Origin: Bdellovibrionales bacterium
Lineage (GTDB): Bacteria > Bdellovibrionota > FAC87 > UBA2466
Reading direction: 5' to 3'
Assembly: GCA_009692515.1 (NCBI GenBank)
Contig: SHZA01000003.1
Coordinates: forward strand, 11,966 to 75,965
Length of the DNA stretch: 64,000 nt
The position numbers and the translations under genes are program-made. Below are positions 1,943 to 52,958 of this stretch, in pieces. How positions within the stretch are numbered: position 1 is the stretch's first letter; every line of letters begins with the position of its first letter. A model generated the notes under the pieces. It made no database searches. It worked only from the letters and a program-made list of their open reading frames with translations, and had not been told where the DNA came from.

Positions 1943-4153
1943 ATGGAATCAAAACAACAGAACTTAGCCGGTTCAGGAATTCGTCTCGACGTCTTAGGTA
2001 AAGATGGCGTAGTGATTCATACTGGGGAATTTATCAAAGATAAGATCGTGATGGGAAGAATCCTATCCGCTGATTTAAGAATTGATGATCCTAGGGTTTC
2101 GAGAATTCACGCATTGATCGAAATTAGAAATGAAGAGATCATTCTTACCGATCTAGCTTCAAGCCATGGCACATTTTTAAATAGCAAAAAAGTGGTCGAA
2201 TCCAAATTGAAGTTTGGAGACATTATTCGCTTGGGTTTTGTAGAATTGAAGGTAACGAAAGGCTCAGGACAAGCTAGCGCACCAACCGCTTCCAAATTTG
2301 ATGCTGAAGACGTGACTAATAATGATGCCACTCTGGTAGATATTGAAAGAGATGAGTTTGATACCAATCGAAGAGATAAGGACCGAAGAAAAAAGGATGC
2401 TTTTCCAACCGAAAAACGCCTTGAGGAAAGGCGTCAAGGAGATCGACGAATTGAGCAGCGAAAAGAGGATCGTCGAAAAGAGGGAACCAGTGAAGCCGAT
2501 AAAGTAATTTCGGAAAGAAGAGAGGATGACGATCGTAGAAAAGATTTGCCTAGAGAAAGAAGAGGCGGTGAACGTAGGCAAAGTGAGCGCCGAGTATTTG
2601 ATATTACGAGTTTAGAAAGACGCATCGATGATCGTAGAGATAGAAAGTCTGATGACGATATTTTACCCGAAGAATTAGAAAAAGCATTTGAATCTCCATC
2701 CCATGCGAGAGAAATTGAAGTGACTGCATTATGGGGAGATCACATCCTTGATATCTCTAATTATAATAACGAGTGTGTCCTAAACATTGGTGAAAGCCCT
2801 CGTAATGACTATATCATTCCCAGTGTAGGTATCCCCGATGAATTTCCCTTATTAACTATCCAAGAGGATGGGACTAGTCAGTTAGCTTTTACGGAAGAAA
2901 TGTCTGGAACCATACGTGCTCGTGACAAAATATATTCAATAAAGGATTTACGTAATGAAAAGTTTGTTCGTAAAGAGGGCGATCATTATGTGATGGGTTT
3001 AAAGCAGGACGATTTTGCAAAAATCGCTGTGGGCACGGTCAGTTTTTTTATTCTTTATGTAAAGCCAGCACCTCGAATTTTACGGCCACCTTTCTTTGAA
3101 CAAGATGCATTATTAATGAGAACAACTGTAGGATCGGTGCTTCTTTTCTTAGCCTTAATGATAGGGCTTTCTTTTGTTCCTAAGCCTATTCCAGTAACCA
3201 TCGAACAGGTGCCTGAGAGATTTGCTAAAATTGTAATTAAAAAGAGACCCGACATTTCAAAAATGGGTTTAATTGCAAAAGGAGAAGAGTCTAAAGAGGG
3301 GGGGTCGGTGGCGGGTGAAGGGGGGCCAGCGATCGGTCCTGAAGGAGAAGCGGGTAGAAAAGATCTTCCTAGAAAAGAGGAAAAGGCGCAAACTATTTTA
3401 CCTAAATCAAAACCGAAAGCAAATACGACGCCGTCACCTGTAGCAACTAAAACAGCGACTCCTGCAAAAACTAAAGTACCAGAGAAAAAATCGATTAAGA
3501 GCGTGGGATTATTAAAAGCAATGTCTAATGGAGCCATTCAAAAAGAGTTTAACAATCTTATCAATGCGGGTGAAGGACCTGAGGGCCCAGGTGGCTTTGA
3601 TGAATTTGGAAAAGCCATTCGCGGAGCCAGAGGAAAAAGTCTTGAAGAGACTGGTGGTGCAGGTGGAATGGGGTTGAAGGGTGTGGATGCTGGCGGTGGT
3701 GGAAAAACTGTGGGAATCGATGGGCCATCAACTAAAGGATTGGGTCGTGGATATCATGGCGACGGCATCGGCGAGGGCATTTCTGGTCCCGGAAGATTTG
3801 GTCTTAAAGGGGAACATGCTATTAGTATTGTGTCAGAAAATATTCAAGTTCTCTCAGGACTTTCTAAAGATCTTATCAATGCCGTCGTCCAACGTCACCG
3901 AGCTGAAATTAGAGCCTGTTATGATTCTGCATTACAAAGAAACCCCAAGCTTAGTGGAAAAGTGGTGATGTTTTTTAACATTCAATCCAATGGGATCGTT
4001 TCCACGGTGGGAATTAAAGAAAGTACAATCGGAGACGCGGGACTTGAAAGTTGTATTGGAAGTAGGATTAAGAGCTGGGTATTTCCCAAACCAGAAGCGC
4101 CTGTGGTTACAGAGGTTGCAGCGTATCCATTTTACTTAAATCCTGCGAACTAA
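1943..4153 (+). CDS. FHA-domain inner-membrane protein with C-terminal TonB-C/AgmX-PglI-like domain (GltG/PglI-like)
   Basis: N-terminal FHA signature (GR…RVSRIHALIE…ILTDLASSHGTFLN); Arg/Asp/Glu-rich repeat linker; one TM helix; Pro/Lys then Gly-rich periplasmic region; C-terminal …AEIRACYDSALQRNPKLSGKVVMFFNIQSNGIV…ESCIGSRIKSWVFPKP resembling TonB-C-like AgmX/PglI C-terminal domain. Confidence 0.7.
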   Translation: MESKQQNLAGSGIRLDVLGKDGVVIHTGEFIKDKIVMGRILSADLRIDDPRVSRIHALIEIRNEEIILTDLASSHGTFLNSKKVVESKLKFGDIIRLGFVELKVTKGSGQASAPTASKFDAEDVTNNDATLVDIERDEFDTNRRDKDRRKKDAFPTEKRLEERRQGDRRIEQRKEDRRKEGTSEADKVISERREDDDRRKDLPRERRGGERRQSERRVFDITSLERRIDDRRDRKSDDDILPEELEKAFESPSHAREIEVTALWGDHILDISNYNNECVLNIGESPRNDYIIPSVGIPDEFPLLTIQEDGTSQLAFTEEMSGTIRARDKIYSIKDLRNEKFVRKEGDHYVMGLKQDDFAKIAVGTVSFFILYVKPAPRILRPPFFEQDALLMRTTVGSVLLFLALMIGLSFVPKPIPVTIEQVPERFAKIVIKKRPDISKMGLIAKGEESKEGGSVAGEGGPAIGPEGEAGRKDLPRKEEKAQTILPKSKPKANTTPSPVATKTATPAKTKVPEKKSIKSVGLLKAMSNGAIQKEFNNLINAGEGPEGPGGFDEFGKAIRGARGKSLEETGGAGGMGLKGVDAGGGGKTVGIDGPSTKGLGRGYHGDGIGEGISGPGRFGLKGEHAISIVSENIQVLSGLSKDLINAVVQRHRAEIRACYDSALQRNPKLSGKVVMFFNIQSNGIVSTVGIKESTIGDAGLESCIGSRIKSWVFPKPEAPVVTEVAAYPFYLNPAN

Positions 4154-12540: not shown

Positions 12541-13719
12541 ATGTTAGTTATTCAAAAGTATGGTGGAAGTAGTTTAGCGACTCCAAAACACATTCAAAAT
12601 GCGGCCCAACGGATAGCTGACCTTCGTAAGAGTGGAAGCCAAGTTGTGGTGGTAGCTTCGGCTATGGGCCGTATGACAGATCATCTTTTACGGCTTGCAG
12701 AAAAAACGGTAAAGGTTCCACCTCCTAGAGAAATTGACATGTTATTAACCGCTGGAGAGCGAATTTCCATGTCTCTTCTTTCAATGGCACTCCAAGAATT
12801 GGGAGTGGCTGCCATTTCCTTTACAGGATCTCAGAGTGGAATTATTACAACTAATGATCACACCGATGCAAAAATTATTGATATTCGTCCGTATCGAATT
12901 TGCGAAGAGTTGGCTCTTGGAAAGGTAGTGATCATTGGAGGTTTTCAGGGAGTCAGTGAGAAAAAAGAGATTACAACCTTGGGGCGAGGAGGGTCTGATA
13001 CAACAGCGGTGGCCTTAGCTGCCGTTTTACAAGCTGATCGCTGTGAGATTTTAACTGACGTTAATGGACTCTATTCTGCAGATCCTAGATTGGTTCCTGA
13101 AGCAAGAATTTTAACTTCCGTAGATTATGAGTCGGCTTTGGAACTAGCCAGTCTTGGAGCGAAGATGCAGGCTCGCAGCATTGAATTAGCTAAGAAATTT
13201 AATGTGAACATTAGGATTAGCTCAAGCTCGTCACAGACAACAGCGGGAACTCAGATTCCTTTAAGTTTAAAAAAATCGGGTACAGCCATCGAGCAAATTA
13301 AGGTAACTGGAGTTGCCACAAAAGATGGGTTTCATTTTTTTAAAACGCAATCCGAAATGGTAACGTTACTAAAGGCCTTAAAAAATATCCCCGTGCCATT
13401 ACGATTTTTGGCGCACCAAAAAACGGGGGTCTATTTTTTAATTGAAAAGGAGCAGGTAGTTTTAGTTCGTCAGATTTTAACCGAGCAAAACATAAACTTT
13501 GAAGAAACTCAAAATGCAGCAATCGTTTCTGTCTTAGGGGAGAGCTTAACTCATTCAATTGAGTTCTTTACTAGTGTCTTTTCTCAAATTGAAATGGAGA
13601 AAATAGATTTGTTGTTTTCAGCTAGTAATGCAATTTCAGTCACATTTGGGGTCGGAGCCAAACATCAGGAATTACTAGCGAGATTCATTCATAAGACCTT
13701 TATCACCTCAATAGATTAA
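12541..13719 (+). CDS. lysC: Aspartate kinase
   Basis: MLVIQKYGGSSL…VVVVASAMG kinase N-terminus; C-terminal ACT-like region. Confidence 0.85.
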   Translation: MLVIQKYGGSSLATPKHIQNAAQRIADLRKSGSQVVVVASAMGRMTDHLLRLAEKTVKVPPPREIDMLLTAGERISMSLLSMALQELGVAAISFTGSQSGIITTNDHTDAKIIDIRPYRICEELALGKVVIIGGFQGVSEKKEITTLGRGGSDTTAVALAAVLQADRCEILTDVNGLYSADPRLVPEARILTSVDYESALELASLGAKMQARSIELAKKFNVNIRISSSSSQTTAGTQIPLSLKKSGTAIEQIKVTGVATKDGFHFFKTQSEMVTLLKALKNIPVPLRFLAHQKTGVYFLIEKEQVVLVRQILTEQNINFEETQNAAIVSVLGESLTHSIEFFTSVFSQIEMEKIDLLFSASNAISVTFGVGAKHQELLARFIHKTFITSID

Positions 13720-14154
13720 TAAAAATGAAGGCCCGCCTGATTATTAAGTCAGTCGAGCCTTTGCTAAAAATGAGCTAAAGTCCATTTTTACCTAATCGGA
13801 CCTCACCTCGTGAATCGTTAAGTTTGTCATCACACCACCCCCTTTCAGTGGGCATGTAGCCCGAAGTCCTTTTGTGAAAAAGAACCTCTTAGGTTTACTA
13901 TAACAGCTTCGAAAAAAAAGCTCATCTCAGGAAAAAAACAAGGCGCCATAAACTATTGTATTTAATGAGCTAAAGCGATTAAGTAGAGTTTATTAATATC
14001 TTTGTCTGCGCGATAATGCGACGTGCTAAAATAGAACATTAATTGAGGTGTCGGTGCATGGCACCAAGTCATCAAGTTATTAAGGGTTTTTTCCGAAAAA
14101 GCTACTAGGAGGGACTCCTAAAAGTCACTCCGCATTATTTTTTGGGGGAGAGTC

Positions 14155-15039
14155 ATGATTATTGCTTTACTTAGTATTGGAGTCACAGGAGGGACTGCCT
14201 TCTACTTATCATGGAATCTATTCTCCGGGGCTCTAGAGGATGCGGCAGCGGGCCGATTGGAACAGGATCAGAAAACCGCTAGTACTGGATTACTAAAACT
14301 GACCCGCCCTTTATTTAAAGCGTTGGTAATGCCGTATTCTCAAAAACTAAAACTTGAAGATTGGAAAAAGAACAATAAACGCAGAATAGTTTCTGCTGGA
14401 TTAGAAGATGCTTTGGATGTGAATGAGCTTCTGGCCTTTAAAATTTTCATGGGAATTGTAGTTCCAATTTCGATTTATACCTATTTTTTGATTACAGGAA
14501 GCCCAATTCCAATTTGGCTTATGGGTGCCATGATGCTTATTGGTTTTGTATATCCAAGTCTGATGGTCTCAAGTGCTAGAAAAAACAGACACGAAGAAAT
14601 AAAATTACAGTTACCATTTGTTATTGATCTTTTAACTTTATCAACTGAGGCGGGACTAGATTTTATTGGAGCCCTACAGAAGGTGGTTGAAAAAACTCGC
14701 TCTGGTCCACTGGTACAAGAGATTGAAAGAATGCTTCAGGAAATTCGCTTGGGGACTACGAGAGCAGATTCGATGCGAGCCATGTCATGGCGAATTGATC
14801 TTCAAGAAACCTCTTCATTAATTGCGGTATTAGTCACAGCAGACCAAATGGGTGCTAGCTTAGGTGATGTTCTTAGAGTGCAATCGGACTTAATTCGAAC
14901 TCAACGATTTACCAGTGCAGAAAAAAAAGGAGCAGCGGCCACACAGAAACTCCTTTTCCCACTCATCTTTTTTATTATGCCTGCGGTGTTCATTATGATA
15001 TTTGGGCCGGTAATTTTAGGATTTTTTGGAGCTAAATAA
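14155..15039 (+). CDS. tadC: Tad/Flp pilus assembly protein TadC-like (type II secretion system F domain)
   Basis: T2SS-F domain signature …QLPFVIDLLTLSTEAGLDFIGALQKV…; three TM segments; RBS GGGGGAGAG upstream. Confidence 0.7.
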   Translation: MIIALLSIGVTGGTAFYLSWNLFSGALEDAAAGRLEQDQKTASTGLLKLTRPLFKALVMPYSQKLKLEDWKKNNKRRIVSAGLEDALDVNELLAFKIFMGIVVPISIYTYFLITGSPIPIWLMGAMMLIGFVYPSLMVSSARKNRHEEIKLQLPFVIDLLTLSTEAGLDFIGALQKVVEKTRSGPLVQEIERMLQEIRLGTTRADSMRAMSWRIDLQETSSLIAVLVTADQMGASLGDVLRVQSDLIRTQRFTSAEKKGAAATQKLLFPLIFFIMPAVFIMIFGPVILGFFGAK

Positions 15040-15392
15040 TGCATGGAAGTATATTGAAAAAAGGGGATCAAATTCTTGTGACAAAGGTGAGAATTGCTAA
15101 AACTTTTTTTGAAAGATTCTCAGGCTTGATGGGAAAAAAAGAAATAACTATTGAAGATGTTTTAATTTTTCCAAAATGCAACTCAGTCCACACTTTTTTC
15201 ATGCGAACAAGCATTGATGTGATTTTCGTATCAGCTCAAGGAGTCGTGACTCAGGTTTTTAGTAATCTTAACCCATGGAGACTATTGTTGCCTCAGAAAA
15301 AAGCTGCACATTGTATCGAGATGCCGTGTGAACTGGCCAGTAAACTGAGAATCTCTATTGGTGATTCCTTAAGTTGTGAAGGAGTTTTTTAG
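15039..15392 (+). CDS. DUF192 (COG1430) domain protein
   Basis: …ARTFFERFSGLMGKKEI…LIFPKCNSVHTFFMRTSIDVIFVS… DUF192 pattern; 1-nt TAATG overlap with tadC. Confidence 0.55.
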   Translation: MHGSILKKGDQILVTKVRIAKTFFERFSGLMGKKEITIEDVLIFPKCNSVHTFFMRTSIDVIFVSAQGVVTQVFSNLNPWRLLLPQKKAAHCIEMPCELASKLRISIGDSLSCEGVF

Positions 15393-17039
15393 TTGAAGTT
15401 TGAAATATCATATAACGGTAAAGTAGTGATCTCAAAAGATCTGCCCGATGGCTCTTATAAAATAGGAAGAGCCCAGGATTGCAGTATTGTTTTGAATTCA
15501 AATAAGGTTTCTAAATATCATGCCCTTCTTATCGTAAAAGGAAATCGGGCTGCGATTTTAGATACAGACTCTTCTAACGGAGTTTTTGTAAATGGAATTC
15601 TGATTAAGAAACAACTTTTAAATACATCCGATAAAATTGAAATGGGTGAACACACCTTTTCAATGGAATCTGGAGCTACTCCACGCAGGAAGATAGAATT
15701 ATTTTCCACAGATGGGTCTGCAGCATTTGCAGCAAAACCTGGCGAAACCCCAGAAAGCTCACCAGATTACTTATTGAATTCTTCATTTGAAGTAGCTCCC
15801 GAAATACCGGTGAACAAACTGGAACAACTTATGAATTTAGTGGATGGTAAAATATTATTTCCATTTTTTGAGTTGGTAAAAGTAATGGATTATCGTTTTT
15901 TAATGGCCATGATCTTAGTAACCACTATTGGGATCTCAGCCTTCTTTAGTGCCATTCCTGTTCTTAGTTGGGGGAGAAATATTACAAAACAGGAATCCTT
16001 AAAGAGAGGCCAAGCCATCCTTAAACAGGTAGTCCGCGAGAACTATAGAATTCTTAGTAAGACCAATGACACCTCATTATTAACTGTGGCTGCAGCTGAA
16101 AGTGATAAGGACATGTTAGAGGTTTATATCCTAGACGCAAAGACTAAGAGTGTACTAGCGCCCACTAAATACCTTGGTAAATCTATTAATGACCCTTATA
16201 TGTTGTTAGCCTTGGGCGATTTAATAGATGATGGAAAATTAGATGCCACCAAAGACAGAGGAAATGGAACCTTTGTTATTGCTCAAAGTATTCCCTATTA
16301 CGGTTCTAAAGACAGTGCTTTATTTTCCGCTGAAAATCCTGAGGACCCTGGGACTCCAACTACTATTGTAATGGCCTACTTTAAGATTCCACAAAGTATT
16401 AATGGCATTTATGAACCCCTTGCCGTTGCCGGATTAGTATCCTTTCTCCTAGCCCTGGTTTCTTTTTTCCTTTTACATAAAATGATTAGCCAGCCCATTA
16501 AAGAGTTACATGACCAGTTAGATGCCGCTCTTAAGGGTGAAAATATTCAGATGGTCTGCAATGCGAAATTTCCAGAACTTGAAGCATTAACTACGGTAAT
16601 TAATTTCTCAGTTACTAAAATGAAAAGTGTGAGTGGGGGCATGGCAGCTGTTCCTGCGGGAATTCCTGGTGGCATCGATGCCGACAATGAGGAGATGATC
16701 TATTTAAAATCTGTCGAAGAGTTCTGTCTAGGATCAACTGATGGCATTTTGGTTTTGGATAGTAGTAAAAAGGTAAAATATGTGGGCCCTATTTTAGGGG
16801 ATTTACTGGGACTCAGACCACAATATGCTCTAGGGCAAAATATAGGAGATGCGTGTCGAGATGGGTCATTCTCAGGCACTGTAATCGACATGTGCGAGCG
16901 GGTAGTTTCTTCTATAGGAGAAACACAGACCGCCTCATTAGATATTAATGGCGTGCCAAGAAATCTCACAGCAGTGAGCCATCGTTTATCAAACGGTGAA
17001 ATTTCCTTTATACTTATTACGGTGAAAATGAATGCCTAA
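15393..17039 (+). CDS. FHA-domain membrane protein with periplasmic domain and HAMP-like segment (TTG start)
   Basis: N-terminal FHA (YKIGRAQDCSIVLNSNKVSKYHALLIVKGNRAAILDTDSSNGVFVNG); two TM helices flanking a ~150-aa periplasmic region; HAMP-like amphipathic segment after TM2; no recognisable output domain. Confidence 0.6.
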   Translation: MKFEISYNGKVVISKDLPDGSYKIGRAQDCSIVLNSNKVSKYHALLIVKGNRAAILDTDSSNGVFVNGILIKKQLLNTSDKIEMGEHTFSMESGATPRRKIELFSTDGSAAFAAKPGETPESSPDYLLNSSFEVAPEIPVNKLEQLMNLVDGKILFPFFELVKVMDYRFLMAMILVTTIGISAFFSAIPVLSWGRNITKQESLKRGQAILKQVVRENYRILSKTNDTSLLTVAAAESDKDMLEVYILDAKTKSVLAPTKYLGKSINDPYMLLALGDLIDDGKLDATKDRGNGTFVIAQSIPYYGSKDSALFSAENPEDPGTPTTIVMAYFKIPQSINGIYEPLAVAGLVSFLLALVSFFLLHKMISQPIKELHDQLDAALKGENIQMVCNAKFPELEALTTVINFSVTKMKSVSGGMAAVPAGIPGGIDADNEEMIYLKSVEEFCLGSTDGILVLDSSKKVKYVGPILGDLLGLRPQYALGQNIGDACRDGSFSGTVIDMCERVVSSIGETQTASLDINGVPRNLTAVSHRLSNGEISFILITVKMNA

Positions 17040-18054
17040 TCCTTTAGACATAAGAGCCACTTCAGACGCCGCTCCCTTATTGGAGCAGATAGCAGGCGCC
17101 GGCAGAGGACGTGTCTTTGAATTAACGATCGATAAGGTAAGTCTTGGGCGAGAAGATAGTAATGATATTATAATTAGTGATGAGTCGGTATCCAGGGTCC
17201 ACGCGAAAATAGAACGAAATTCTCAGGGTACTTTTTTTATCTCTGATAACAATAGTAAAAATGGTGTGATTGTAAATGGTCTAAAGACTGAACATGTTTC
17301 TTTGAACCACGCTGATATTATTCAACTCGGGCATTTTGTGTTTAGATTCCGCATTCCAGGACAGAGTTCTTCTCAAATCAAAATACCTATCGGGGGCCAT
17401 TTAGACTTAGTGATGGAAAATTCTACTGGGTTGAAGCCTGAAGGAAATCGAAAACGGCTTTATCTGTGGTTGGGACTAATAGCTTTTATTGCAATTGCAA
17501 TAATTATTAATAATCAGGACTCGAGTCCCCCTGCAGAGATAGATACGCTTGAAAATTCACAGCAGGAAAAATTCAAGCCATCACCTATTCCTAACCTGGA
17601 GACAGAATCTGCAATTGGCATCATTGGTTTAGAGGATCCTTTAGCGGAAACAGAAAATGATTTGAAGAAAAAGGAAGGCACGGAAAACTCCTTGAAGGAG
17701 GCAGAAATTTCTTTTCGAAAAGGGCAGAGGGATTACTTTAACAAAAACTATCATCACGCAATTGACAATTTCGAAGCAGCCCTTTCAATTTCTAATCGCC
17801 ACCCTTTGGCCGGCTATTATAAGGGGCTTGCTATTCATGATTCAGAGGTTGAGGCAGAAAAAAATAGGGACATGGGTTTGAAGTATTATAATTCTTTGCA
17901 ATATAGTCGAGCCATCTATCATTTTAAAAATGCCATTGAGTTTCTTGCTCATACTACCGCAGATAATAAAACGGCAAATAAAATAATTCAAGAGTGTGAA
18001 AGGTATATTGGTTTCTCGAATCGTAAACAGCAAGCAGCAGAGGTGGTCCCATGA
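17032..18054 (+). CDS. FHA-domain membrane protein with C-terminal TPR-like region
   Basis: FHA (LGREDSNDIIISDESVSRVHAKIERNSQGTFFISDNNSKNGVIVNG); one TM; 8-bp overlap with upstream gene. Confidence 0.6.
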   Translation: MPNPLDIRATSDAAPLLEQIAGAGRGRVFELTIDKVSLGREDSNDIIISDESVSRVHAKIERNSQGTFFISDNNSKNGVIVNGLKTEHVSLNHADIIQLGHFVFRFRIPGQSSSQIKIPIGGHLDLVMENSTGLKPEGNRKRLYLWLGLIAFIAIAIIINNQDSSPPAEIDTLENSQQEKFKPSPIPNLETESAIGIIGLEDPLAETENDLKKKEGTENSLKEAEISFRKGQRDYFNKNYHHAIDNFEAALSISNRHPLAGYYKGLAIHDSEVEAEKNRDMGLKYYNSLQYSRAIYHFKNAIEFLAHTTADNKTANKIIQECERYIGFSNRKQQAAEVVP

Positions 18055-20249
18055 GGATCACCGTAAAACTTTTCGATAGTAATATTTTAGTTTTAACAAA
18101 GCTTTTCGATGTGGGAAGTTTTCGAGTAGGTAAGTCTGAGTTTTCTGACATTGTTTTGCCGGACGAAAGTGTGAGTCGAAGTGCTTTGGAAATAAGAGTT
18201 ACGGAGGAGAGTGTATATGTCACTAACATGGGCGGCTCTGGACTACTAAAAATTGATGGTAAAAAACGCGAAACGGGTCAGTTGAAAGATGGGTCTACTA
18301 TTGAGGTTTCAAAATTTAAATTAGTAATATTTCTAAGCGCAGAAGAGCTAGCATCTTCCAATTCGAAACAAATAAAACCCATAGACGCTGTGGAAAAAAA
18401 TCCAGAAAATATTGAAGAACCGCAACCGGAAGACTATCCAGCAGCCGGATTATTCCCAGCTCCTCCTGAGGCTGAAGGCAATGATGATCAGTCTAACGAG
18501 GAAAATAATGATTTTCAGGGGGATAAATACCAAAATCAGAATGACGAGGGAGAACAGGTTTTTGAATTTCCTGATCCAGCCATCGCAAAACAGCCACCGA
18601 GTAGTTCCTTTATTGAGGGGAATTTAGCACTTAAGGAGCGAACAGAAACTTTAGCGGAGTCAAAACCCTTAATCGCCAAAATTATGTTTATAGCGGGCCC
18701 TCGCGCCGGAGAAGAGATTTCACTTCAGTCTTTCGAGCTCAGTTTTGGAAGAAGTCGAAAAGCTGATGTCATGTTGAATGATGATAAATTATCACGAGTT
18801 CACGCCAAAATTATTCGTTTCGGAACGGGGTATCGAGTTCTTGACCTTAACAGTCGTAATGGAACCTGTGTCAACGGAGTCAGAATTCTTGAACATCCCC
18901 TAAGTAGTTATGATGTGATTGAATTTGGGAGTACTAAAATTAAATTCCTGATTCATGATCTGCTATTACATGAGGTAGGCAATGCCACTGGATTAATACC
19001 CGTGCAAACGGCGGGCAAAGAATCAACAAAATCGTTGTACTTGGATTCAGATGAACGATTGGAATTAAGTAAACTTAGAAAATCGAGCAGTGGATCTCCT
19101 CCTGTTGCTATCGAAGAGGAAAGGGATGACGAGTTTTTTGTTGAGCCAGAACCCAAGAAAAGGTCGATAGTAAGGCTTGTTCTTGTAATAGTAATAACCA
19201 TAGGGCTAGTCTTGTGGTGGATGAATTTATCCAATGGGAAGCCAAAAGAGGCAAACCCAATCGCAACAACCAAATCGGCTACAGCGATCACCGATAAAAA
19301 TAATGTGGTGCCAAGAATTCCCAAAGATTTTGCTGAACTCACCGACGAAATGAAGCGCAAGATTGAAGGGGCTTATATTAATGCAAGTAGCGTTTCTCAA
19401 AGAGCAGATTTAACACTAGAAGATATTGAAAAGACGCGAGAGGATTTAAGAAGAATTCATCAGTCTCTTCCCTATTATAAAAACTCAAGAGAATTGCTAG
19501 AACAATTAGATAAGAGGTATCGCGATAAATCTTCACAATTAGCCGCTGAGAAAGCAAAACAAGATGAGGTTCAGGATCTAAATATTTATCTAGAAGATGG
19601 AATCGAATATCTTAAACAAGGGGAATTTGAAAGAGCTGCCGAGTCGTTTCAGTTGGCTTTAAATTTAGACCCAAGAAATTTGGTAGCAGCAAAGGGCTTT
19701 AAAGCAGCTGAACTTAAAGTAAAAGATTTAGAAAACCTCCCACCGGATAGTGATCCTGAGGAGGAAAAAAAATATCTTATCAAGCAACTTTATGAAAAAG
19801 CGCTCACAGCTTTAGGTAATCGGGGGTATCAAGAGGCGATAGATTTAGCTGAGCAGATTCGGAAGATAAACTTGAAATCGGATCAAACCTATTTGAATGA
19901 GGCAAAACAAATAATTGATAGAGCCAAAATTGCTCAGAAAGAGGAGTTTGAACCCTTCCTAATTCAGGCCAAAGAGAAGTTTGCAGAGGGTGATTATAAT
20001 GCCACTCGTGATCTATGTGAAGAAATGCTAAAGCGAGATCCGGCCTATGAAGATGCCAAAGAGTTGCTATTAAAATCTAAGAAACAACTGAGTCGCCTTG
20101 CCAAAGAGGCTTATATCCATGGTTATATTTTAGAAAGTATTGGTCAGATTGAACAGGCGAAACAGTATTGGAATCGAGCTAAAAATTACGTTCGTTCGGG
20201 CGATGAATATTTTGATAAAGTGAATAAAAAACTAGATCAGTATCAATAG
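18051..20249 (+). CDS. Tandem-FHA membrane protein with acidic linker and C-terminal TPR/coiled-coil periplasmic region
   Basis: Degenerate N-terminal FHA-like region; second canonical FHA (FGRSRKADVMLNDDKLSRVHAKIIRFGTGYRVLDLNSRNGTCVNG); TM helix ~aa 370-392; ATGA overlap with upstream gene. Confidence 0.6.
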   Translation: MRITVKLFDSNILVLTKLFDVGSFRVGKSEFSDIVLPDESVSRSALEIRVTEESVYVTNMGGSGLLKIDGKKRETGQLKDGSTIEVSKFKLVIFLSAEELASSNSKQIKPIDAVEKNPENIEEPQPEDYPAAGLFPAPPEAEGNDDQSNEENNDFQGDKYQNQNDEGEQVFEFPDPAIAKQPPSSSFIEGNLALKERTETLAESKPLIAKIMFIAGPRAGEEISLQSFELSFGRSRKADVMLNDDKLSRVHAKIIRFGTGYRVLDLNSRNGTCVNGVRILEHPLSSYDVIEFGSTKIKFLIHDLLLHEVGNATGLIPVQTAGKESTKSLYLDSDERLELSKLRKSSSGSPPVAIEEERDDEFFVEPEPKKRSIVRLVLVIVITIGLVLWWMNLSNGKPKEANPIATTKSATAITDKNNVVPRIPKDFAELTDEMKRKIEGAYINASSVSQRADLTLEDIEKTREDLRRIHQSLPYYKNSRELLEQLDKRYRDKSSQLAAEKAKQDEVQDLNIYLEDGIEYLKQGEFERAAESFQLALNLDPRNLVAAKGFKAAELKVKDLENLPPDSDPEEEKKYLIKQLYEKALTALGNRGYQEAIDLAEQIRKINLKSDQTYLNEAKQIIDRAKIAQKEEFEPFLIQAKEKFAEGDYNATRDLCEEMLKRDPAYEDAKELLLKSKKQLSRLAKEAYIHGYILESIGQIEQAKQYWNRAKNYVRSGDEYFDKVNKKLDQYQ

Positions 20250-20300: not shown

Positions 20301-20342
20301 AAAAAACGGGCACCTATAAAAAGGTGCCCGTTTTGATTTTTT
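20301..20342. terminator. Bidirectional rho-independent terminator between convergent genes
   Basis: AAAAAA-AACGGGCACC-tataaaaa-GGTGCCCGTT-TTTTGATTTTTT; perfect 10-bp stem flanked by A-run and T-run. Confidence 0.8.
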
Positions 20343-47892: not shown

Positions 47893-48501
47893 ATGACTCT
47901 TCAACCCCTTCCTCATTTATTTTTAGCCTCTACGTCACCTCGTCGCCGACAAATTTTAGAGAGTTTAAATATTCCCTTCAGTCTGATTAATCCCGAGGTC
48001 ACCGAGGCTCTTGCTGAGGCCATCAATATTGAAGAGATAACGATGGCTAATTCTTTATTGAAAGCACGCAGTGGAATGGGGTTAGTTTCTAAGGAAACCG
48101 ATATTTTGATTGGCTCAGATACCTTAGTTGTTTTAGGGCAGCAGGTAATGGGCAAACCTAAAGGCAAACAAGATGCGATTAAGATGCTGACTCAACTTTC
48201 AGGAAATTGGCATACCGTAGTGACTGGGATTGCGTTTATCTCCAAGAAATATGGAGAAAAAAAAGTTTGTGATGTTTCAAAAATTAAATTCAAATCCTTA
48301 ACTATCGAACAAATTGCAGACTATGCAGATACTAAAGAACCTTATGACAAGGCTGGTAGTTATGCCGTCCAGGGATTGGGAAGTTTACTTATTGAAAAAC
48401 TAGAAGGGTCTTACACTAATGTAATGGGATTTCCTGTGGAAAAATTTTTAATAGAATTGAGTTTGTTTACTGGAATTCCACTTAAGAAATGGTTCTCTTA
48501 A
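47893..48501 (+). CDS. maf: Maf-like nucleotide pyrophosphatase
   Basis: LASTSPRRRQIL N-terminal motif. Confidence 0.8.
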   Translation: MTLQPLPHLFLASTSPRRRQILESLNIPFSLINPEVTEALAEAINIEEITMANSLLKARSGMGLVSKETDILIGSDTLVVLGQQVMGKPKGKQDAIKMLTQLSGNWHTVVTGIAFISKKYGEKKVCDVSKIKFKSLTIEQIADYADTKEPYDKAGSYAVQGLGSLLIEKLEGSYTNVMGFPVEKFLIELSLFTGIPLKKWFS

Positions 48502-49167
48502 ATGGCGTCGATTGCGGAAAACATTGCTTTGATTAAAGAGCAAATATCCTTGGTATCTAAAGGACGAAAGATTCAGATTGCTGCAGTTACAAAACATCAG
48601 CCTGTAGAGAAGGTGAAAGAGGCTATTGAAGCGGGGATTACAAAACTGGCTGTTAATTATGCTCAAGAGGGTGATGAGCTTAGACTGTTAATTGATAATG
48701 AAAATATAGAATGGCACTTTATCGGCCATATTCAGAGCCGAAAGGTAAAGTACTTAACTGAGTACCACTGTGTTCAAAGCATTGATCGAATGGAAGTTGC
48801 ACATGAACTCAATCTTCGTTTGGAAAAAAAACAACGAGCCGTTTACGTTTTGATAGAGGTAAATATTGGCCGAGAACCTCAAAAGAGTGGAGTTCTTCCT
48901 GAACGACTTAATGATTTTCTGGAACGGTTAGCGGCCATGCCCAATTTAAAGGTGATTGGCCTAATGGCCATTCCCCCCATGATACATCCCGTAGAGGACC
49001 GCAGGGTCTATTTTAAAGAGATGGGGCAACTATTTAAGCAATATCAGCCCTTATATAGTCTAGAGATTCTTTCTATGGGGACTAGTGAGGATTATCTTCT
49101 TGCGATTCAAGAGGGAGCTACCATGGTGCGTCTGGGAACTTGTCTTTTTGGCCATCGTTCTTTTTAA
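48502..49167 (+). CDS. yggS: YggS-family PLP-binding protein
   Basis: Alanine-racemase-N-like fold; IGHIQSRKVK motif. Confidence 0.8.
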   Translation: MASIAENIALIKEQISLVSKGRKIQIAAVTKHQPVEKVKEAIEAGITKLAVNYAQEGDELRLLIDNENIEWHFIGHIQSRKVKYLTEYHCVQSIDRMEVAHELNLRLEKKQRAVYVLIEVNIGREPQKSGVLPERLNDFLERLAAMPNLKVIGLMAIPPMIHPVEDRRVYFKEMGQLFKQYQPLYSLEILSMGTSEDYLLAIQEGATMVRLGTCLFGHRSF

Positions 49168-49225
49168 CTCGAGTTAGTCTGTGGTATATTTTGGTGTAAG
49201 TAATCTTTCTTTTAGGAGAACTATA

Positions 49226-49771
49226 ATGGAAAACAAAACAATAGACGCTTTATCTGAAAAAATTTCACCTATCGAATTAAAGAATAAAGAATTTAAAAAA
49301 GTAATGCTGGGATACTCTCCAGAAGAGGTAGTTTCTTTTCTAGATAAAACAGCAAAAGCTTGGACGCTAGTTCAAAAAAGAGAAAAAGAACTTTTACAGA
49401 AGATTGAGTCTCTCAATGCAGAAATTTCTCATTGGAGACAAAAGGAGACCGAGACCGCACGGATTCGACAAGAAGCGATAAAAGAATCTGAGCTGATTAA
49501 AGAGGCTGGAATCAAAGATGCTGAAAAGTTATTTAGACAAGTTGAAGAAAGAGCTCAAGACATTAGGGTGAGAACAGAAGAATGGTTAACTGAAGTCATT
49601 AATCAAGTTCAAGAGACGGAAAGACAGAAGGCGCATTTTATGACAGCATTTAAATCGGCTCTGGATAGCCATTATGATTTAATTAAAAATGACCAAGAGC
49701 TTTCGGAACCGTTGTCTCAACGATTAGATAATTTTTTGAAAACGGTAACTCAGAGTCCTAGCTCTCACTAA
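49226..49771 (+). CDS. DivIVA-domain protein
   Basis: N-terminal DivIVA pattern …IELKNKEFKKVMLGYSPEEVVSFLDK… followed by coiled coil; ATG 49226 with AGGAG RBS preferred over the ORF-track GTG start at 49181. Confidence 0.6.
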   Translation: MENKTIDALSEKISPIELKNKEFKKVMLGYSPEEVVSFLDKTAKAWTLVQKREKELLQKIESLNAEISHWRQKETETARIRQEAIKESELIKEAGIKDAEKLFRQVEERAQDIRVRTEEWLTEVINQVQETERQKAHFMTAFKSALDSHYDLIKNDQELSEPLSQRLDNFLKTVTQSPSSH

Positions 49772-49777
49772 CTTGAT

Positions 49778-50602
49778 TTAGGGAATTACAGTTTCAATAG
49801 ATTCTTTTTTTATCCATCCACCCATGGGTTGTAGAACCTGAACAAATTCGTTTTTATTGATGCCTAGCTCAATCATAGTTCCTGAAGGCAAAAGTGCTAA
49901 CTCTGCTGGGTTTCCTAATTTATCGAAGGCAAAAATAGGGACCTCTTTGTCTGCAGTGATTACCGCAATAGGGCCACCTAGTTGATGAATAACAATAAAG
50001 AAAATCATACCGATCCAACAAATAGAAATTCCAATAATAGAAAGTGGATGAATGGAGGTTTTATTTTTTCTGAATGTTAAAGTTCCAATGAGTATCCAGG
50101 CTCCTAAAAACCCCAAGAAAATTAAAAATCCTATAGGGGAAATCATTTTAAGAATGAAGGAGTTTCGGCTTGGAAGATTATCTCTAATACCTATCTCTTT
50201 TTGAAAGCTTTGTAGAAGCTTAATATCTGAATTCCTTTTTAGCGGAGAATTTCTTAGATTTAAACTAGTCAGTGCATAGACTACAGCTTGAGAGCGTTCC
50301 TTTAGCTGCCATGAGCAAAGAGATAGATTAAAGAAGGGCTCTGCAGATTGAATGCCTTCTTGGGATGTTAAATCCACCCAATGCTTAAGCAAGGCACAGG
50401 CCTCCTTCGGGGAATCTCTGTTAAGGGCATCTAGACTTTGAGACCAAGAATCATTTAAGGAGGGGCTACCTATGAGATTCTTGGTGAATAGAAAAAGGCA
50501 TACGACCGCGACAATCGTTAGCCCTCTGGCTAGAGCCAAAACAGGGTTAACCATGATTAAATTCCTTAGAACAGATTGTTCGGTGGTGAAATAACCGTGC
50601 AA
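49778..50602 (-). CDS. Hypothetical membrane protein (TM-anchored, C-terminal beta-rich domain)
   Basis: N-terminal and central hydrophobic helices; no clear family. Confidence 0.35.
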   Translation of the reverse strand: MHGYFTTEQSVLRNLIMVNPVLALARGLTIVAVVCLFLFTKNLIGSPSLNDSWSQSLDALNRDSPKEACALLKHWVDLTSQEGIQSAEPFFNLSLCSWQLKERSQAVVYALTSLNLRNSPLKRNSDIKLLQSFQKEIGIRDNLPSRNSFILKMISPIGFLIFLGFLGAWILIGTLTFRKNKTSIHPLSIIGISICWIGMIFFIVIHQLGGPIAVITADKEVPIFAFDKLGNPAELALLPSGTMIELGINKNEFVQVLQPMGGWIKKESIETVIP

Positions 50603-50632
50603 TTTTTTGATTATATTATTTAAAATAACTCG

Positions 50633-51133
50633 CTAGTAACGAATTTCGTATTTCTCTTCTAGCACCTGCACCAGCAATCTAAGCTCATTTAAGCGATCTT
50701 CAAGCTCATGATTGAGCTTTTGAAGTAACTTGATACGTTCGTCCTTTTCACTCAGTGCATGCTCAAAGGCATCTGACACCATGTGAATAGACTCTGCATC
50801 ATGTTCGAAGCGAATAATGTTTTCACGTTTTTCATGGTGAGTTGCATTCTTCGCTATCGCTGATTCATCGCTATATCTTCTAGTGGGAACCAAGGTAGGT
50901 ATTTTTATAGGTACCGGTTCCGCAGAAATAGTACTCATCTTTCTATTTTCAAAAAAGATGAAGTATTTTCCCTTTTCTAAACGATAAGCAATGGTGTTGC
51001 TTTTTATTTTTCGACGAATAGTGCTGAGAGAGATTCCACTTTTAACTGAATACTCAGTGAGTGGAAACCAATTTTCGCTACTCTCATTGCAAGTTTCTGG
51101 AACGTGCTGTGACATGAGAGCTCCTTCCGACAT
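50633..51133 (-). CDS. Hypothetical protein with putative helix-turn-helix and C-terminal coiled coil
   Basis: …LTEYSVKSGISLSTIRRKIKSNTIAY… HTH-like; C-terminal heptad repeats. Confidence 0.35.
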   Translation of the reverse strand: MSEGALMSQHVPETCNESSENWFPLTEYSVKSGISLSTIRRKIKSNTIAYRLEKGKYFIFFENRKMSTISAEPVPIKIPTLVPTRRYSDESAIAKNATHHEKRENIIRFEHDAESIHMVSDAFEHALSEKDERIKLLQKLNHELEDRLNELRLLVQVLEEKYEIRY

Positions 51134-51241
51134 GTTTTAATTATAGCCTAGAGTAGAGAACTTAGAAATATGGTAGAATTATTAAATAAGAGGTTTTCCC
51201 CTCTTCAATATCTCACACCGTACCAATTTTTATAGAGGCCT

Positions 51242-51616
51242 ATGTATAAAACAATATTTAAGTACGTTTTCATTGTGTGCGCCGTGTTGAGCTTTGGCCA
51301 ATTGAAAATTAGTGAGAAAGAAATAGGTAACTACTTTGTTTCTGGCGTGAAGGCTTTTGCAATTTGGAGTGCTGCAAAAATAGCAGAGAGTCCCTGGGTG
51401 GCAAAAGTGATTCAGCCCACAGGACTTACCGGTTGGTTCCCATTAGGCGAAATGAATAAGAAGCGAGTTCCCAGTATCAAAGAAATACGAGGTGGTGTTG
51501 GGGGCTCTCAGTTGGCACCTGATCTTGAAAGTGAAACCGAGAATGAATTTAGCGAAGAATTTTCTGAAGAAGAAATCGAATCGGAAGATGATGCCGTAAT
51601 GGCGATTCTTCCTTAG
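51242..51616 (+). CDS. Small secreted protein with highly acidic C-terminal tail
   Basis: Signal peptide; C-terminus ESETENEFSEEFSEEEIESEDD. Confidence 0.4.
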   Translation: MYKTIFKYVFIVCAVLSFGQLKISEKEIGNYFVSGVKAFAIWSAAKIAESPWVAKVIQPTGLTGWFPLGEMNKKRVPSIKEIRGGVGGSQLAPDLESETENEFSEEFSEEEIESEDDAVMAILP

Positions 51617-51624
51617 AGGTAATC

Positions 51625-52176
51625 ATGGAAAACACTGAAAAAACTGAATTTATTAATCGAAGAAGAGAACATCGCCTTCCTTATTTTGAAAAGATAATTT
51701 TTAGTAATGGAAAAAATCATCTCACAGCTCACCCGATTAATATTAGTCGCGGAGGACTATTTGTTACTACCCTAGATTCCATGCCGCTTGAAACGATGGG
51801 ATACTTAGTTTTTATGCTTACTAGCCACTCTAGAAGTATATCGATTAAAGCTAGAGTGGCTCATATTGTATATGACAAACAAAGGTGCGAAGTGGAATGT
51901 GGTATGGGGTTACAATTTTTAGATATCACCCAGACACAGTTAAACCTGTTAAATCTTCATATTTTAAATGATCAAAATAATTATCTGGAATTAAGAGAGG
52001 CTTTAAAAGATGAAAAGCCCAATTTTATGACGGTAAGTAGAATTAAAAGCAAATTACCAGGACTAGATAAGTATGATCTTCTGGGGCTTCGCTACCGCAT
52101 CAATCGTATTTGTACCCTATTTGATAATCCGCCTCTAGCCGAGACAACTCCGATCCCTCTAAGTCGAGTGGGTTAA
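51625..52176 (+). CDS. PilZ-domain protein (putative c-di-GMP receptor)
   Basis: RxxxR (RREHR) and N/DxSxxG (NISRGG) motifs at correct spacing. Confidence 0.65.
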   Translation: MENTEKTEFINRRREHRLPYFEKIIFSNGKNHLTAHPINISRGGLFVTTLDSMPLETMGYLVFMLTSHSRSISIKARVAHIVYDKQRCEVECGMGLQFLDITQTQLNLLNLHILNDQNNYLELREALKDEKPNFMTVSRIKSKLPGLDKYDLLGLRYRINRICTLFDNPPLAETTPIPLSRVG

Positions 52177-52190
52177 TATTCAACCCACTC
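52166..52190 (+). other. 9-bp perfect stem-loop (GAGTGGGTT-aatattc-AACCCACTC) spanning the PilZ stop codon
   Basis: Read directly from sequence; not followed by a U-tract. Confidence 0.45.
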
Positions 52191-52490
52191 CAATTCAAGA
52201 GAACACAAAGGGTGCGGTGGCTTTTTCACTGTACAATTTTTTGACAGCTGCACAGTAAAAAAAAAAGACAGGGCGACTAACTAACCTATTGAAATAAAGC
52301 TGGAATTTGAGGTGCCTGTTAAGCTGTTGTCTTGAAGTGTAAAACTGTCTGGTTTTTTTTCACTTAAGTTGATTCTCCCGACTACAAAAAGAACACGTCA
52401 TTTTTCTAAGGGGTTAATCCATTGTTATAAAGATGGACCTATCTTTGCAATATAAAACTATCGAGACGATTTATAGTTTGGGAGAGATTT

Positions 52491-52958
52491 ATGAAGGGAA
52501 AGTTAATAAATATAATGCGTAGATGGTGGTTGATGGCTTTAGTTTCGACTTTAGCTCTTTCTCTTACCAGTTGTGCCAAACGCAAAAATTATAATCTAAA
52601 TGGGGCCTATGGTTACGTTCAATGTGATGGGAATAACTGGAGCTTTGACGTTTATACTTTTCGTTCTCAGTCACAAAATGGCGCCTATGATTTAGTTATC
52701 ATACCAGTTTCTATAGATACTCCAGGGGATATTGCATCTATTACCATTGCTAATTCCAACCAAGCTTACAAGCAATTGGTATCTCAAATTGTTTTAAATC
52801 CAGACCAGGAGATTAGTGCTGGAACCTTGAGTTCGGCCGATTTTAATAACTATCCAATTTTAGCTATTACCCCTTATGATCCTAGTAGCAGCTTTGTATC
52901 TCAAAATTCTGTTAAGTCTACTTTCTGTCAAATTCCTGCTCCAGGAGATGGAATTTAA
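52491..52958 (+). CDS. Hypothetical lipoprotein
   Basis: Signal peptide with lipobox LTSCAK. Confidence 0.4.
   Translation: MKGKLINIMRRWWLMALVSTLALSLTSCAKRKNYNLNGAYGYVQCDGNNWSFDVYTFRSQSQNGAYDLVIIPVSIDTPGDIASITIANSNQAYKQLVSQIVLNPDQEISAGTLSSADFNNYPILAITPYDPSSSFVSQNSVKSTFCQIPAPGDGI

Follow-up and report, generated by a model that had tools for sequence, protein, structure and literature searches.

A tadC-DUF192-FHA operon from an uncultured Bdellovibrionales bacterium as the probable counterpart of the Bdellovibrio bacteriovorus tadC locus

We analysed a stretch of 64,000 nucleotides from a Bdellovibrionales bacterium (assembly GCA_009692515.1, contig SHZA01000003.1, positions 11,966 to 75,965 of the forward strand; hereafter the window, whose own numbering is used throughout), in which five consecutive genes at 14155-20249 encode a TadC-like platform protein, a DUF192 protein and three proteins with forkhead-associated (FHA) domains. 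We put at roughly three in four the probability that this operon represents the 'tadC locus' of Bdellovibrionota, orthologous to Bd0470-Bd0474 of Bdellovibrio bacteriovorus, and that it encodes one half of the platform of a dispersed, Kil-like tight adherence (Tad) machine together with its accessories. Earlier work has already described this operon, including its FHA genes, its position apart from the tad locus and its part in predation; what the window contributes is an ortholog from an uncultured lineage. A first-pass annotation of the same DNA had presented the block as uncharacterised, a description that overstates its novelty: the split tadC locus, the FHA neighbours and the need for them in predation are all on record (PMC6561027; PMC12034629; bioRxiv 10.64898/2026.07.08.737194). 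New here are a WalK-like, kinase-less first FHA protein (FHA_A), three canonical FHA domains, a conserved threonine (Thr198) in the third FHA protein (FHA_C), and the occurrence of short DUF192 genes in Tad loci of unrelated phyla.

The five genes form one coupled unit on the + strand. The tadC gene (14155-15039, 294 aa) matches the Pfam family T2SSF (PF00482) over residues 157-283 with 65.5 bits against a cut-off of 25.2, and the DUF192 gene (15039-15392, 117 aa) matches PF02643 with 64.8 bits against a cut-off of 27. In the same Pfam searches FHA_A (15393-17039, 548 aa, the putative Bd0472 counterpart) has an FHA match of 56.5 bits; FHA_B (17032-18054, 340 aa, likewise for Bd0473) one of 67.9 bits along with a weak TPR match; and FHA_C (18051-20249, 732 aa, likewise for Bd0474) two FHA stretches at 92 bits and TPR. 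The successive junctions are TAATG, TAG abutting TTG, an 8-bp overlap (ATGCCTAA) and ATGA. Every downstream start has a Shine-Dalgarno sequence within the gene before it, and tadC itself is preceded by a strong one, GGGGGAGAG, at 14144-14152. We place the start of FHA_A at TTG 15393. This codon immediately follows the stop codon of the DUF192 gene, lies 8 nt after an AAGGAG sequence, aligns with ortholog N-termini and restores the first FHA beta-strand present in the orthologs; public and automatic gene calls begin at GTG 15426 (537 aa), where the Shine-Dalgarno sequence is poorer. A hydropathy scan predicts two transmembrane (TM) segments in FHA_A (170-188 and 343-361), one in FHA_B (143-161), one in FHA_C (373-391) and 3-4 hydrophobic segments in TadC; it finds no TM segment and no signal peptide in the DUF192 protein. 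The gene positions, strand and junctions, the domain content and the TadC assignment of the 294-aa protein thus agree with the first-pass annotation, as do its descriptions of FHA_B as TPR-like and of FHA_C as a tandem FHA protein with a periplasmic TPR region. It had also reported the absence of other Tad genes nearby, which is borne out: the window holds a single T2SSF open reading frame (ORF), and we found no TadA/CpaF ATPase, secretin, CpaB, Ser/Thr kinase or PP2C phosphatase in its 64 kb.

For the B. bacteriovorus genes a role in predation is on record. Bd0470 is listed as the ortholog of the Myxococcus xanthus platform protein KilH and maps well away from the main tad locus (Bd0110-Bd0119; Seef et al., PMC8460266). 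A Bd0470::tn mutant showed no prey attachment, killing or rounding, and a Bd0474::tn mutant attached to prey but neither killed nor rounded it; both were complemented (Duncan et al., PMC6561027). The same study annotates Bd0470 to Bd0475 as TadC, a conserved or secreted protein, FHA, FHA, FHA and a hypothetical protein, and gives them transposon-sequencing predation fitness values of 0.033, 0.015, 0.002, 0.0025, 0.0036 and 0.023, respectively, with class 1 and class 2 phenotypes (PMC6561027). Bd0470-Bd0475 constitute one operon, Bd0474 comprises two cytoplasmic FHA domains and an extracytoplasmic TPR domain, and in two-hybrid assays it binds the predation-essential TPR protein Bd0075 through the extracytoplasmic domains of both proteins (PMC12034629). 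According to a further report, B. bacteriovorus has tadC and tadB at separate sites, "unlike in other species"; tadC adjoins FHA/TPR genes and could not be deleted, and a TadC-mCherry fusion is found together with the secretin at the invasive cell pole. Prolonged attachment, remodelling of the prey and invasion all depend on the Tad machine, and the other Tad genes (TadA, TadB, RcpA, Flp) are present but dispersed (bioRxiv 10.64898/2026.07.08.737194).

By sequence comparison the window operon matches Bd0470-Bd0474 gene for gene. For this we took contiguous 160-aa stretches of Bd0470 and KilH from the eLife supermatrix, with comparisons extending over ~157 aa, and used contigs L087-L089 as proxies for the HD100 operon. 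Identity to the Bd0470 fragment is 45% for the window TadC, 89% for the TadC of metagenome contig L089 and 68% for that of L088; a search with the 160-aa fragment returned only proteins of at most 280 aa, the best at 89%. Contig L089 reads T2SSF-DUF192(115)-FHA(545)-FHA(369)-2xFHA(664)-ORF6, and L088 has the same set. Against these positional counterparts the window DUF192 protein shows 39-41% identity (41% to L089) and FHA_A 22-25% over 444-552 aa; with L088, FHA_B shares 29% over 332 aa and FHA_C 23% over 547 aa, the FHA proteins of the window aligning over nearly their full length with those of L088. Common to the window and B. bacteriovorus are therefore the order TadC, small DUF192-type protein, FHA protein of ~545 aa, FHA protein of ~340-370 aa and 2xFHA-TM-TPR protein of ~660-730 aa, and the separation of tadC from tadB and the main tad locus, the window having no other Tad gene in 64 kb. 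The two differ in their small protein: Bd0471 is annotated with a signal sequence, whereas the window DUF192 protein and 79/83 orthologs have no hydrophobic leader.

Conservation across the phylum points the same way. A TadC alignment was used to scan species-representative genomes, which yielded 80 loci from Bdellovibrionia, Bacteriovoracia and Oligoflexia at 39-96% TadC identity; the scan patterns TEAGLDFI and AEK[KR]GAAA[ST] do not fit Bd0470 (VEAGLDFF, AEKAGAQAS), and HD100 thus falls outside these 80. The ORFs of the loci were searched with the window proteins, and counts are given as loci with the gene over loci with enough sequence. The order TadC-DUF192-FHA_A-FHA_B-FHA_C was found wherever the contig was long enough: DUF192 directly follows tadC in 82/82 loci, FHA_A is present in 76/76 and FHA_C in 60/60, and FHA_B is present in 62/66, the four misses being FHA_B genes that scored as the paralogous FHA_C class. 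Every informative locus, out of more than 80 independent ones in Bdellovibrionota, has this arrangement, which is far beyond chance, and the invariance of the five-gene core implies a unit under strong selection. The first-pass annotation had asked whether the linkage of TadC with FHA genes is kept in relatives, and across the phylum it is. Chance adjacency or an annotation artefact, with no functional unit behind it, can be set aside as having next to no probability, given stop and start codons that overlap or abut, an identical order down to 39% TadC identity, and predation phenotypes for all of the B. bacteriovorus orthologs.

The surroundings of the core are less constant. Three relatives at ~70% TadC identity with long contigs have the same five genes after lysC and different downstream flanks, and lysC precedes tadC in the close family only; in the window, as the first-pass annotation had noted, it is the direct upstream neighbour (12541-13719). 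In the Bdellovibrio-proper loci (L087, L088), by contrast, the upstream position is held by maf, yggS, proC and divIVA on the opposite strand. Because maf-yggS-divIVA precede tadC there but sit ~28 kb downstream of the operon in the window (47893-49771), the operon appears to have moved as a block. One isolate, 'Bdellovibrionota bacterium FG-2' (L086, 4468-10897), has tadC divergent from DUF192-FHA_A-FHA_B-FHA_C and is the sole locus of the 80 that is not co-directional. In one subclade of the close family an extra FHA-TM-TPR gene (~400-455 aa) stands between FHA_A and FHA_B (L023, at 12879-14240, L024, L025, L027, L033, L034, L037, L038, L041 and L042); sharing the C-terminal motif AYLNEAKQxIDQAK with FHA_C, it looks like a duplication.

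Further evidence comes from the Kil system of Myxococcota. With the KilH fragment of M. xanthus the window TadC shares 46% identity over ~157 aa, and a profile of Bdellovibrionota TadC proteins scores 195-248 bits on KilH ORFs versus 46-70 bits on the adjacent KilG/TadB ORFs, which places the window protein with the predicted KilH/CpaH-type inner-membrane platform proteins, not with the TadB/KilG type. Metagenome contigs scanned with the KilH fragment gave 80 Myxococcota loci, which we searched with profiles built from Bdellovibrionota orthologs. Immediately before kilH, 50/54 of these loci have a TadB-like ORF. After it, 21/24 have one or more FHA ORFs, and 19 of the 21 also gave a match to the C-terminal TPR region of the FHA_B or FHA_C profile. 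The annotation of M. xanthus MXAN_4650, MXAN_4649 and MXAN_4648 likewise shows KilH followed by FHA and FHA/TPR genes (PMC8460266, Supplementary file 1). Kil cluster 2 (kilG-kilH-MXAN_4649-MXAN_4648) and the window operon therefore have in common a TadC-type gene with FHA and FHA+TPR genes directly downstream. They differ upstream, where Myxococcota have kilG (tadB) directly before kilH and the window has lysC, and in the pilin and cpaB genes that are adjacent in Myxococcus, none of which is adjacent in the window. DUF192 was found in 0/80 Myxococcota kil loci, and an FHA_A-type protein (Cache-HAMP-PAS) was not detected in them, the FHA domain of that profile alone giving matches. Because 21/24 kilH loci have FHA ORFs downstream, 19 with a match to the TPR part, the tadC-FHA-FHA/TPR linkage is common to both predatory lineages; DUF192, FHA_A and the separation from tadB are Bdellovibrionota features. 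Of the two readings offered in the first-pass annotation, that of a dispersed Kil- or Tad-like predation apparatus whose FHA platform is encoded here gains support from the identity to Bd0470 and KilH, the Bd0470-Bd0474 gene order and the kilH-FHA linkage of Myxococcota. The other, a novel FHA signalling module built around a TadC-like protein, is not needed, the operon having already been published.

It is important to note what weighs against orthology with Bd0470-Bd0474. The assignment draws on a 160-aa fragment of Bd0470, two close proxies and published descriptions, and identity is only 22-46%. The TadA, TadB, secretin, pilin, kinase and phosphatase genes that such a machine would call upon are not within the 64-kb window. 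Moreover, a sixth gene is present in B. bacteriovorus (Bd0475) and missing here, where no window ORF is homologous to it, as it is from most of the phylum. Genes of this kind (~227-237 aa) follow FHA_C in ~14 loci of the Bdellovibrio-proper subclade only (L089, 5500-6210; L088, 15716-16399; and ~12 more), and because of this confinement we do not count the sixth gene as part of the conserved core. The family has no Pfam match above threshold, with weak SpoIIE matches in 2/12 members and a PP2C match in 1/12, and no PDB match; the published hint that the protein is a phosphatase is thus weakly supported by its sequence.

Of the three FHA proteins, FHA_A has the most informative architecture. 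Its family is large and uniform, with more than 100 representative clusters of 510-580 aa matched at full length. An AlphaFold model built from an alignment of 75 family members (mean predicted local distance difference test score, pLDDT, 86.7) comprises an FHA domain (residues 1-95), a disordered linker (97-138), a long helix running through TM1 (141-223), a periplasmic alpha/beta domain of the PDC/Cache type (~190-340), TM2 with two HAMP-like helices (341-414) and a cytoplasmic PAS fold (430-544). The periplasmic domain and HAMP-like segment that had been read from the sequence at first pass are thus reproduced by the two TM segments, the model and its structural matches. The top Foldseek match is a WalK model (414 aligned columns, E = 7e-14), and Pfam finds PAS in 34/75 family members and HisKA or HATPase_c in none of the 75, FHA_A ending after the PAS fold. 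Residues 141-544 correspond to the input half of WalK-type kinases (TM, extracellular PDC/Cache, TM, HAMP, PAS), whereas the DHp and catalytic domains are lacking and an N-terminal FHA domain takes the place of the kinase output. Because of the WalK structure match, the PAS matches and the lack of a kinase core throughout the family, we model FHA_A as the input half of a WalK-type sensor kinase with FHA substituted for the kinase.

FHA_B and FHA_C are predicted to be paralogous proteins with a common FHA-TM-periplasmic-TPR plan. FHA_B consists of a cytoplasmic FHA domain, one TM segment and a periplasmic TPR region; FHA_C has a degenerate first FHA domain (FHA1), an acidic linker, a canonical second FHA domain (FHA2), one TM segment and a periplasmic TPR/helical domain. 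In FHA_A, FHA_B and FHA2 of FHA_C the Gly-Arg, Ser-x-x-His and Asn-Gly motifs of the phosphate-binding site are present in the window and kept in at least 80-95% of 61-80 orthologs. The best PDB sequence matches of the canonical domains are Rv1747, GarA/OdhI, FhaA and EmbR, not SctD, and the FHA domain of FHA_A superimposes on phosphothreonine-bound FhaA, GarA and OdhI and on Bdellovibrio DgcB. The FHA domain of B. bacteriovorus DgcB, which is among the structural matches of FHA_A, has been solved with its phosphopeptide, which shows that Bdellovibrio already makes use of phosphothreonine-FHA signalling.

When conserved threonines were sought beyond the folded domains, only one site emerged, Thr198 of FHA_C (consensus D-E-D-T-Q-V-E), which is kept in 98% of 61 orthologs within a highly variable acidic linker, ~35 residues before the GR motif of FHA2. 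In GarA, an ETTS motif folds back on the FHA domain. By analogy Thr198, a T-x-V site upstream of FHA2, resembles the fold-back threonine motif of GarA/OdhI and could be a candidate phospho-ligand. GarA and OdhI also provide the best NCBIfam and PDB matches of the canonical FHA domains; they differ from the operon proteins in being small soluble metabolic regulators.

From these features a tentative mechanism can be proposed. TadC would pair with a TadB encoded elsewhere, and the three FHA proteins would form a membrane collar around the platform. FHA_A, as a WalK-like sensor with no kinase, would read a periplasmic or envelope cue, and the TPR arms of FHA_B and FHA_C would reach periplasmic partners such as Bd0075. 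On the cytoplasmic side the three canonical FHA domains would bind to threonines phosphorylated by a Ser/Thr kinase whose gene lies elsewhere, with Thr198 of FHA_C itself as one possible docking target, and the pilus machine would thereby be licensed to go from attachment to invasion; the DUF192 protein may be a small cytoplasmic Tad accessory inherited with tadC. A precedent exists in the PpkA, PppA, Fha1 and TagH switch of the type VI secretion system (T6SS), in which FHA proteins at the base of a trans-envelope machine read threonine phosphorylation and, upon a signal from contact or from the envelope, allow the machine to assemble or fire, and a phospho-switch of this type has been proposed by analogy for Kil by Seef et al. 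(PMC8460266). The analogy differs from the window in that no kinase or phosphatase stands beside the operon, that the machine here would be a Tad pilus, and that the operon proteins reach only 38.5 and 59.5 bits with the TagH model TIGR03354 against a cut-off of 120.25. In its full form, namely that TadC-DUF192-3xFHA is a self-contained, phylum-wide licensing switch in which FHA_A detects contact with the prey envelope in the periplasm, phosphothreonine-FHA docking including a GarA-like fold-back of Thr198 drives the transition from attachment to invasion, and DUF192 is a core Tad accessory passed on with tadC in Actinomycetota, Bacillota, Pseudomonadota and Bdellovibrionota, we regard the proposal as unlikely.

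The main rival to a phosphothreonine mechanism, which we rate as unlikely, holds that the three FHA proteins have a structural role only: an inner-membrane ring or alignment scaffold of the Tad machine that works independently of phosphorylation, comparable to SctD/PrgH/YscD and with no kinase input. Several observations count against phosphothreonine reading and in favour of such a scaffold. All four FHA regions of the operon also match PF16697 (Yop-YscD_cpl), and we know of no member of the YscD family of the type III secretion system (T3SS) that reads phosphothreonine. There is no kinase or phosphatase in the operon or the window, and the FHA-TM-periplasmic layout is like that of SctD and GltG. 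FHA1 of FHA_C lacks the Asn-Gly loop family-wide, and in the window (18051-18350, residues 1-100) it has Lys28 for the Arg and Ala45 for the His, residues otherwise conserved in at least 80-95% of orthologs, so that FHA1 seems to have degenerated further in this lineage. Thr198 could equally be part of an N-terminal structural extension of the FHA fold, and phosphorylation of Thr198 or of any operon protein is at present a prediction from sequence.

The evidence against a passive scaffold lies mainly in the domains themselves. SctD FHA domains lack phosphate-binding residues, whereas three of the four operon FHA domains keep the full set at the level of conservation given above, and their closest sequence and structure matches are true phosphothreonine readers. 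The operon proteins share with SctD (YscD/PrgH) a cytoplasmic FHA fold, a single TM segment and a periplasmic domain, but they score only 12.8, 20.9 and 24.9 bits with the SctD model TIGR02500 against a cut-off of 86, in the FHA region only, and their periplasmic parts are TPR or Cache, with no ring-building motifs. The Cache/PDC, HAMP and PAS sensor modules of FHA_A would, moreover, be superfluous in a passive scaffold. GltG and GltJ are likewise FHA-TM-periplasmic-domain proteins of a trans-envelope machine in predatory bacteria; the operon FHA proteins differ from GltG in matching its model NF033760 in the FHA domain only (37-55 bits against a cut-off of 650) and in having no AgmX/PglI C-terminal domain.

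A further possibility is that the operon is a self-contained envelope-signalling module with a recruited TadC-like paralog and no tie to a pilus, its role lying perhaps in the control of secretion or in coupling to gliding motility. The lack of any other Tad gene within 64 kb, the resemblance of FHA_A to a signalling protein and a fragment of the Glt machinery (a GltE-like and a GltG-like FHA protein) ~10 kb upstream would all fit. Yet the window protein is clearly of the KilH/TadC type, and Bd0470 is the only tadC described in the analyses of B. bacteriovorus that we consulted, where it is essential and located with the Tad secretin at the invasive pole (PMC8460266; bioRxiv 10.64898/2026.07.08.737194). 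In addition, the Myxococcota tadC-FHA linkage sits within the Kil pilus cluster beside tadB, and relatives show no synteny between the Glt fragment and tadC. We therefore judge a pilus-independent module highly improbable.

The place of DUF192 in the operon can be viewed from Tad loci elsewhere. Its profile matches only PDB 3pjy and 3m7a, both structural-genomics entries of unknown function whose proteins carry leaders, whereas the window protein has none; a single-sequence model gave pLDDT 39 and no usable fold. A tblastn search of a plasmid collection with the window DUF192 protein and two of its matches returned few homologs. Every short DUF192 copy (107-120 aa) whose context we examined sits in a Tad or type IV pilus locus: a Moraxella plasmid with CpaB-secretin-ATPase-T2SSF-T2SSF-DUF192-TadE, two groups of Streptomyces plasmids with CpaF-T2SSF-T2SSF-...-TadE-TadE-TadG-LysM-DUF192, and an Alkaliphilus plasmid with prepilin peptidase-DUF192 (coordinates L092 6971-7294, L090 6935-7291, L173 7983-8342 and L091 6974-7300; all leaderless). 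A longer Halomonas copy (170 aa, L174) had no pilus context. In the literature that we searched we found no functional study of DUF192 and none linking it to pili. Small as the sample is, it points to tadC-DUF192 as an old sub-module of Tad systems that did not originate in Bdellovibrio, and DUF192 may be an unrecognised Tad accessory; the few independent lineages on which the link is based and the Halomonas copy outside a pilus context are points against it.

How obligate predators turn contact with prey into invasion is an open question, and a 2025 review of contact-dependent predation still treats the FHA proteins of kil clusters only as "promising candidates". The window does not present a new system, and the locus itself would not come as a surprise to a specialist; comparative work sharpens the question to an invariant core, three phosphothreonine-type FHA domains, a kinase-less sensor and a near-invariant linker threonine, and the predictions should be useful. 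The invariant core, the WalK-like FHA_A, the FHA residues, Thr198 and the DUF192-Tad link are testable handles in B. bacteriovorus, where genetics exist. If true, the DUF192-Tad link would also give context to a domain family that has been without a function since its structures were solved.

Upstream of the operon, a terminator hairpin at 13728-13762 (+ strand; GGCCCGCCTGA...TCAGTCGAGCC), whose stem is kept through changes on both arms in an alignment with five relatives, parts lysC from the tadC transcription unit. The 435-bp lysC-tadC spacer contains no Flp-like or other plausible small ORF. A candidate tadC promoter with an extended -10 element (TGCTAAAAT) lies at 14024-14032 on the + strand, where the pattern TGnTAnAAT is kept in six lysC-tadC spacers (TadC identity 78-96%); a simple sigma-70 scan made no call at this position. 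It is followed at 14053-14100 (+ strand) by a conserved 5' untranslated region, an alignment block with the hairpin GGTGCATGGCACC, then CAAGTCATCAAGTT and T6CCGA5, which has no Rfam match. From these features, 14024-14100 is probably the promoter and leader of tadC. Further upstream in the spacer, at 13797-13870, is a near-invariant non-coding block of ~75 nt (…GGACCTCACCTCGTGA…CATCACACCACCCCCTT…GGGCATGTAGCCCGAAG). In the six closest genomes (TadC identity at least 78%) its conservation exceeds that of the flanking genes; it is single-copy and is not found in relatives at ~70% identity. Neither the block nor the spacer has an Rfam match even at E<=1, and the block has no convincing covarying fold, with one compensatory pair only. 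At the other end, a bidirectional intrinsic terminator at 20303-20334 (13-bp stem with 7 GC pairs, T-runs on both strands) ends the operon and is common to a convergent aldehyde dehydrogenase gene.

The remainder of the window is housekeeping in character (cytochrome oxidase, uvrC, rpsB-tsf-pyrH-frr, dxr, rseP, lepA, tRNA synthetases and others), with two further observations. The first-pass inventory of FHA proteins was right for the three in the operon and overlooked a fourth, a GltG-like protein encoded at 1943-4153 (+), with FHA, TM, a Gly-rich region and an AgmX/PglI tail. It scores 271 bits with NF033760, under the cut-off of 650, and 96.7 bits in its C-terminal domain with NF033768, above the cut-off of 40. 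Together with a GltE-like TPR lipoprotein at 634-1500 (+; NF033758, 63 bits, under cut-off) it forms a fragment of the Glt gliding-motility system. We considered and rejected the GltG-like gene as a member of the operon module, as it fits the Glt models and is not syntenic with tadC in relatives. The second is a PilZ-domain gene at 51625-52176, which lies within 49778-52958 among four ORFs that have no Pfam match (49778-50602, 50633-51133, 51242-51616 and 52491-52958); PilZ proteins have been reported near tad genes in B. bacteriovorus (bioRxiv 10.64898/2026.07.08.737194).

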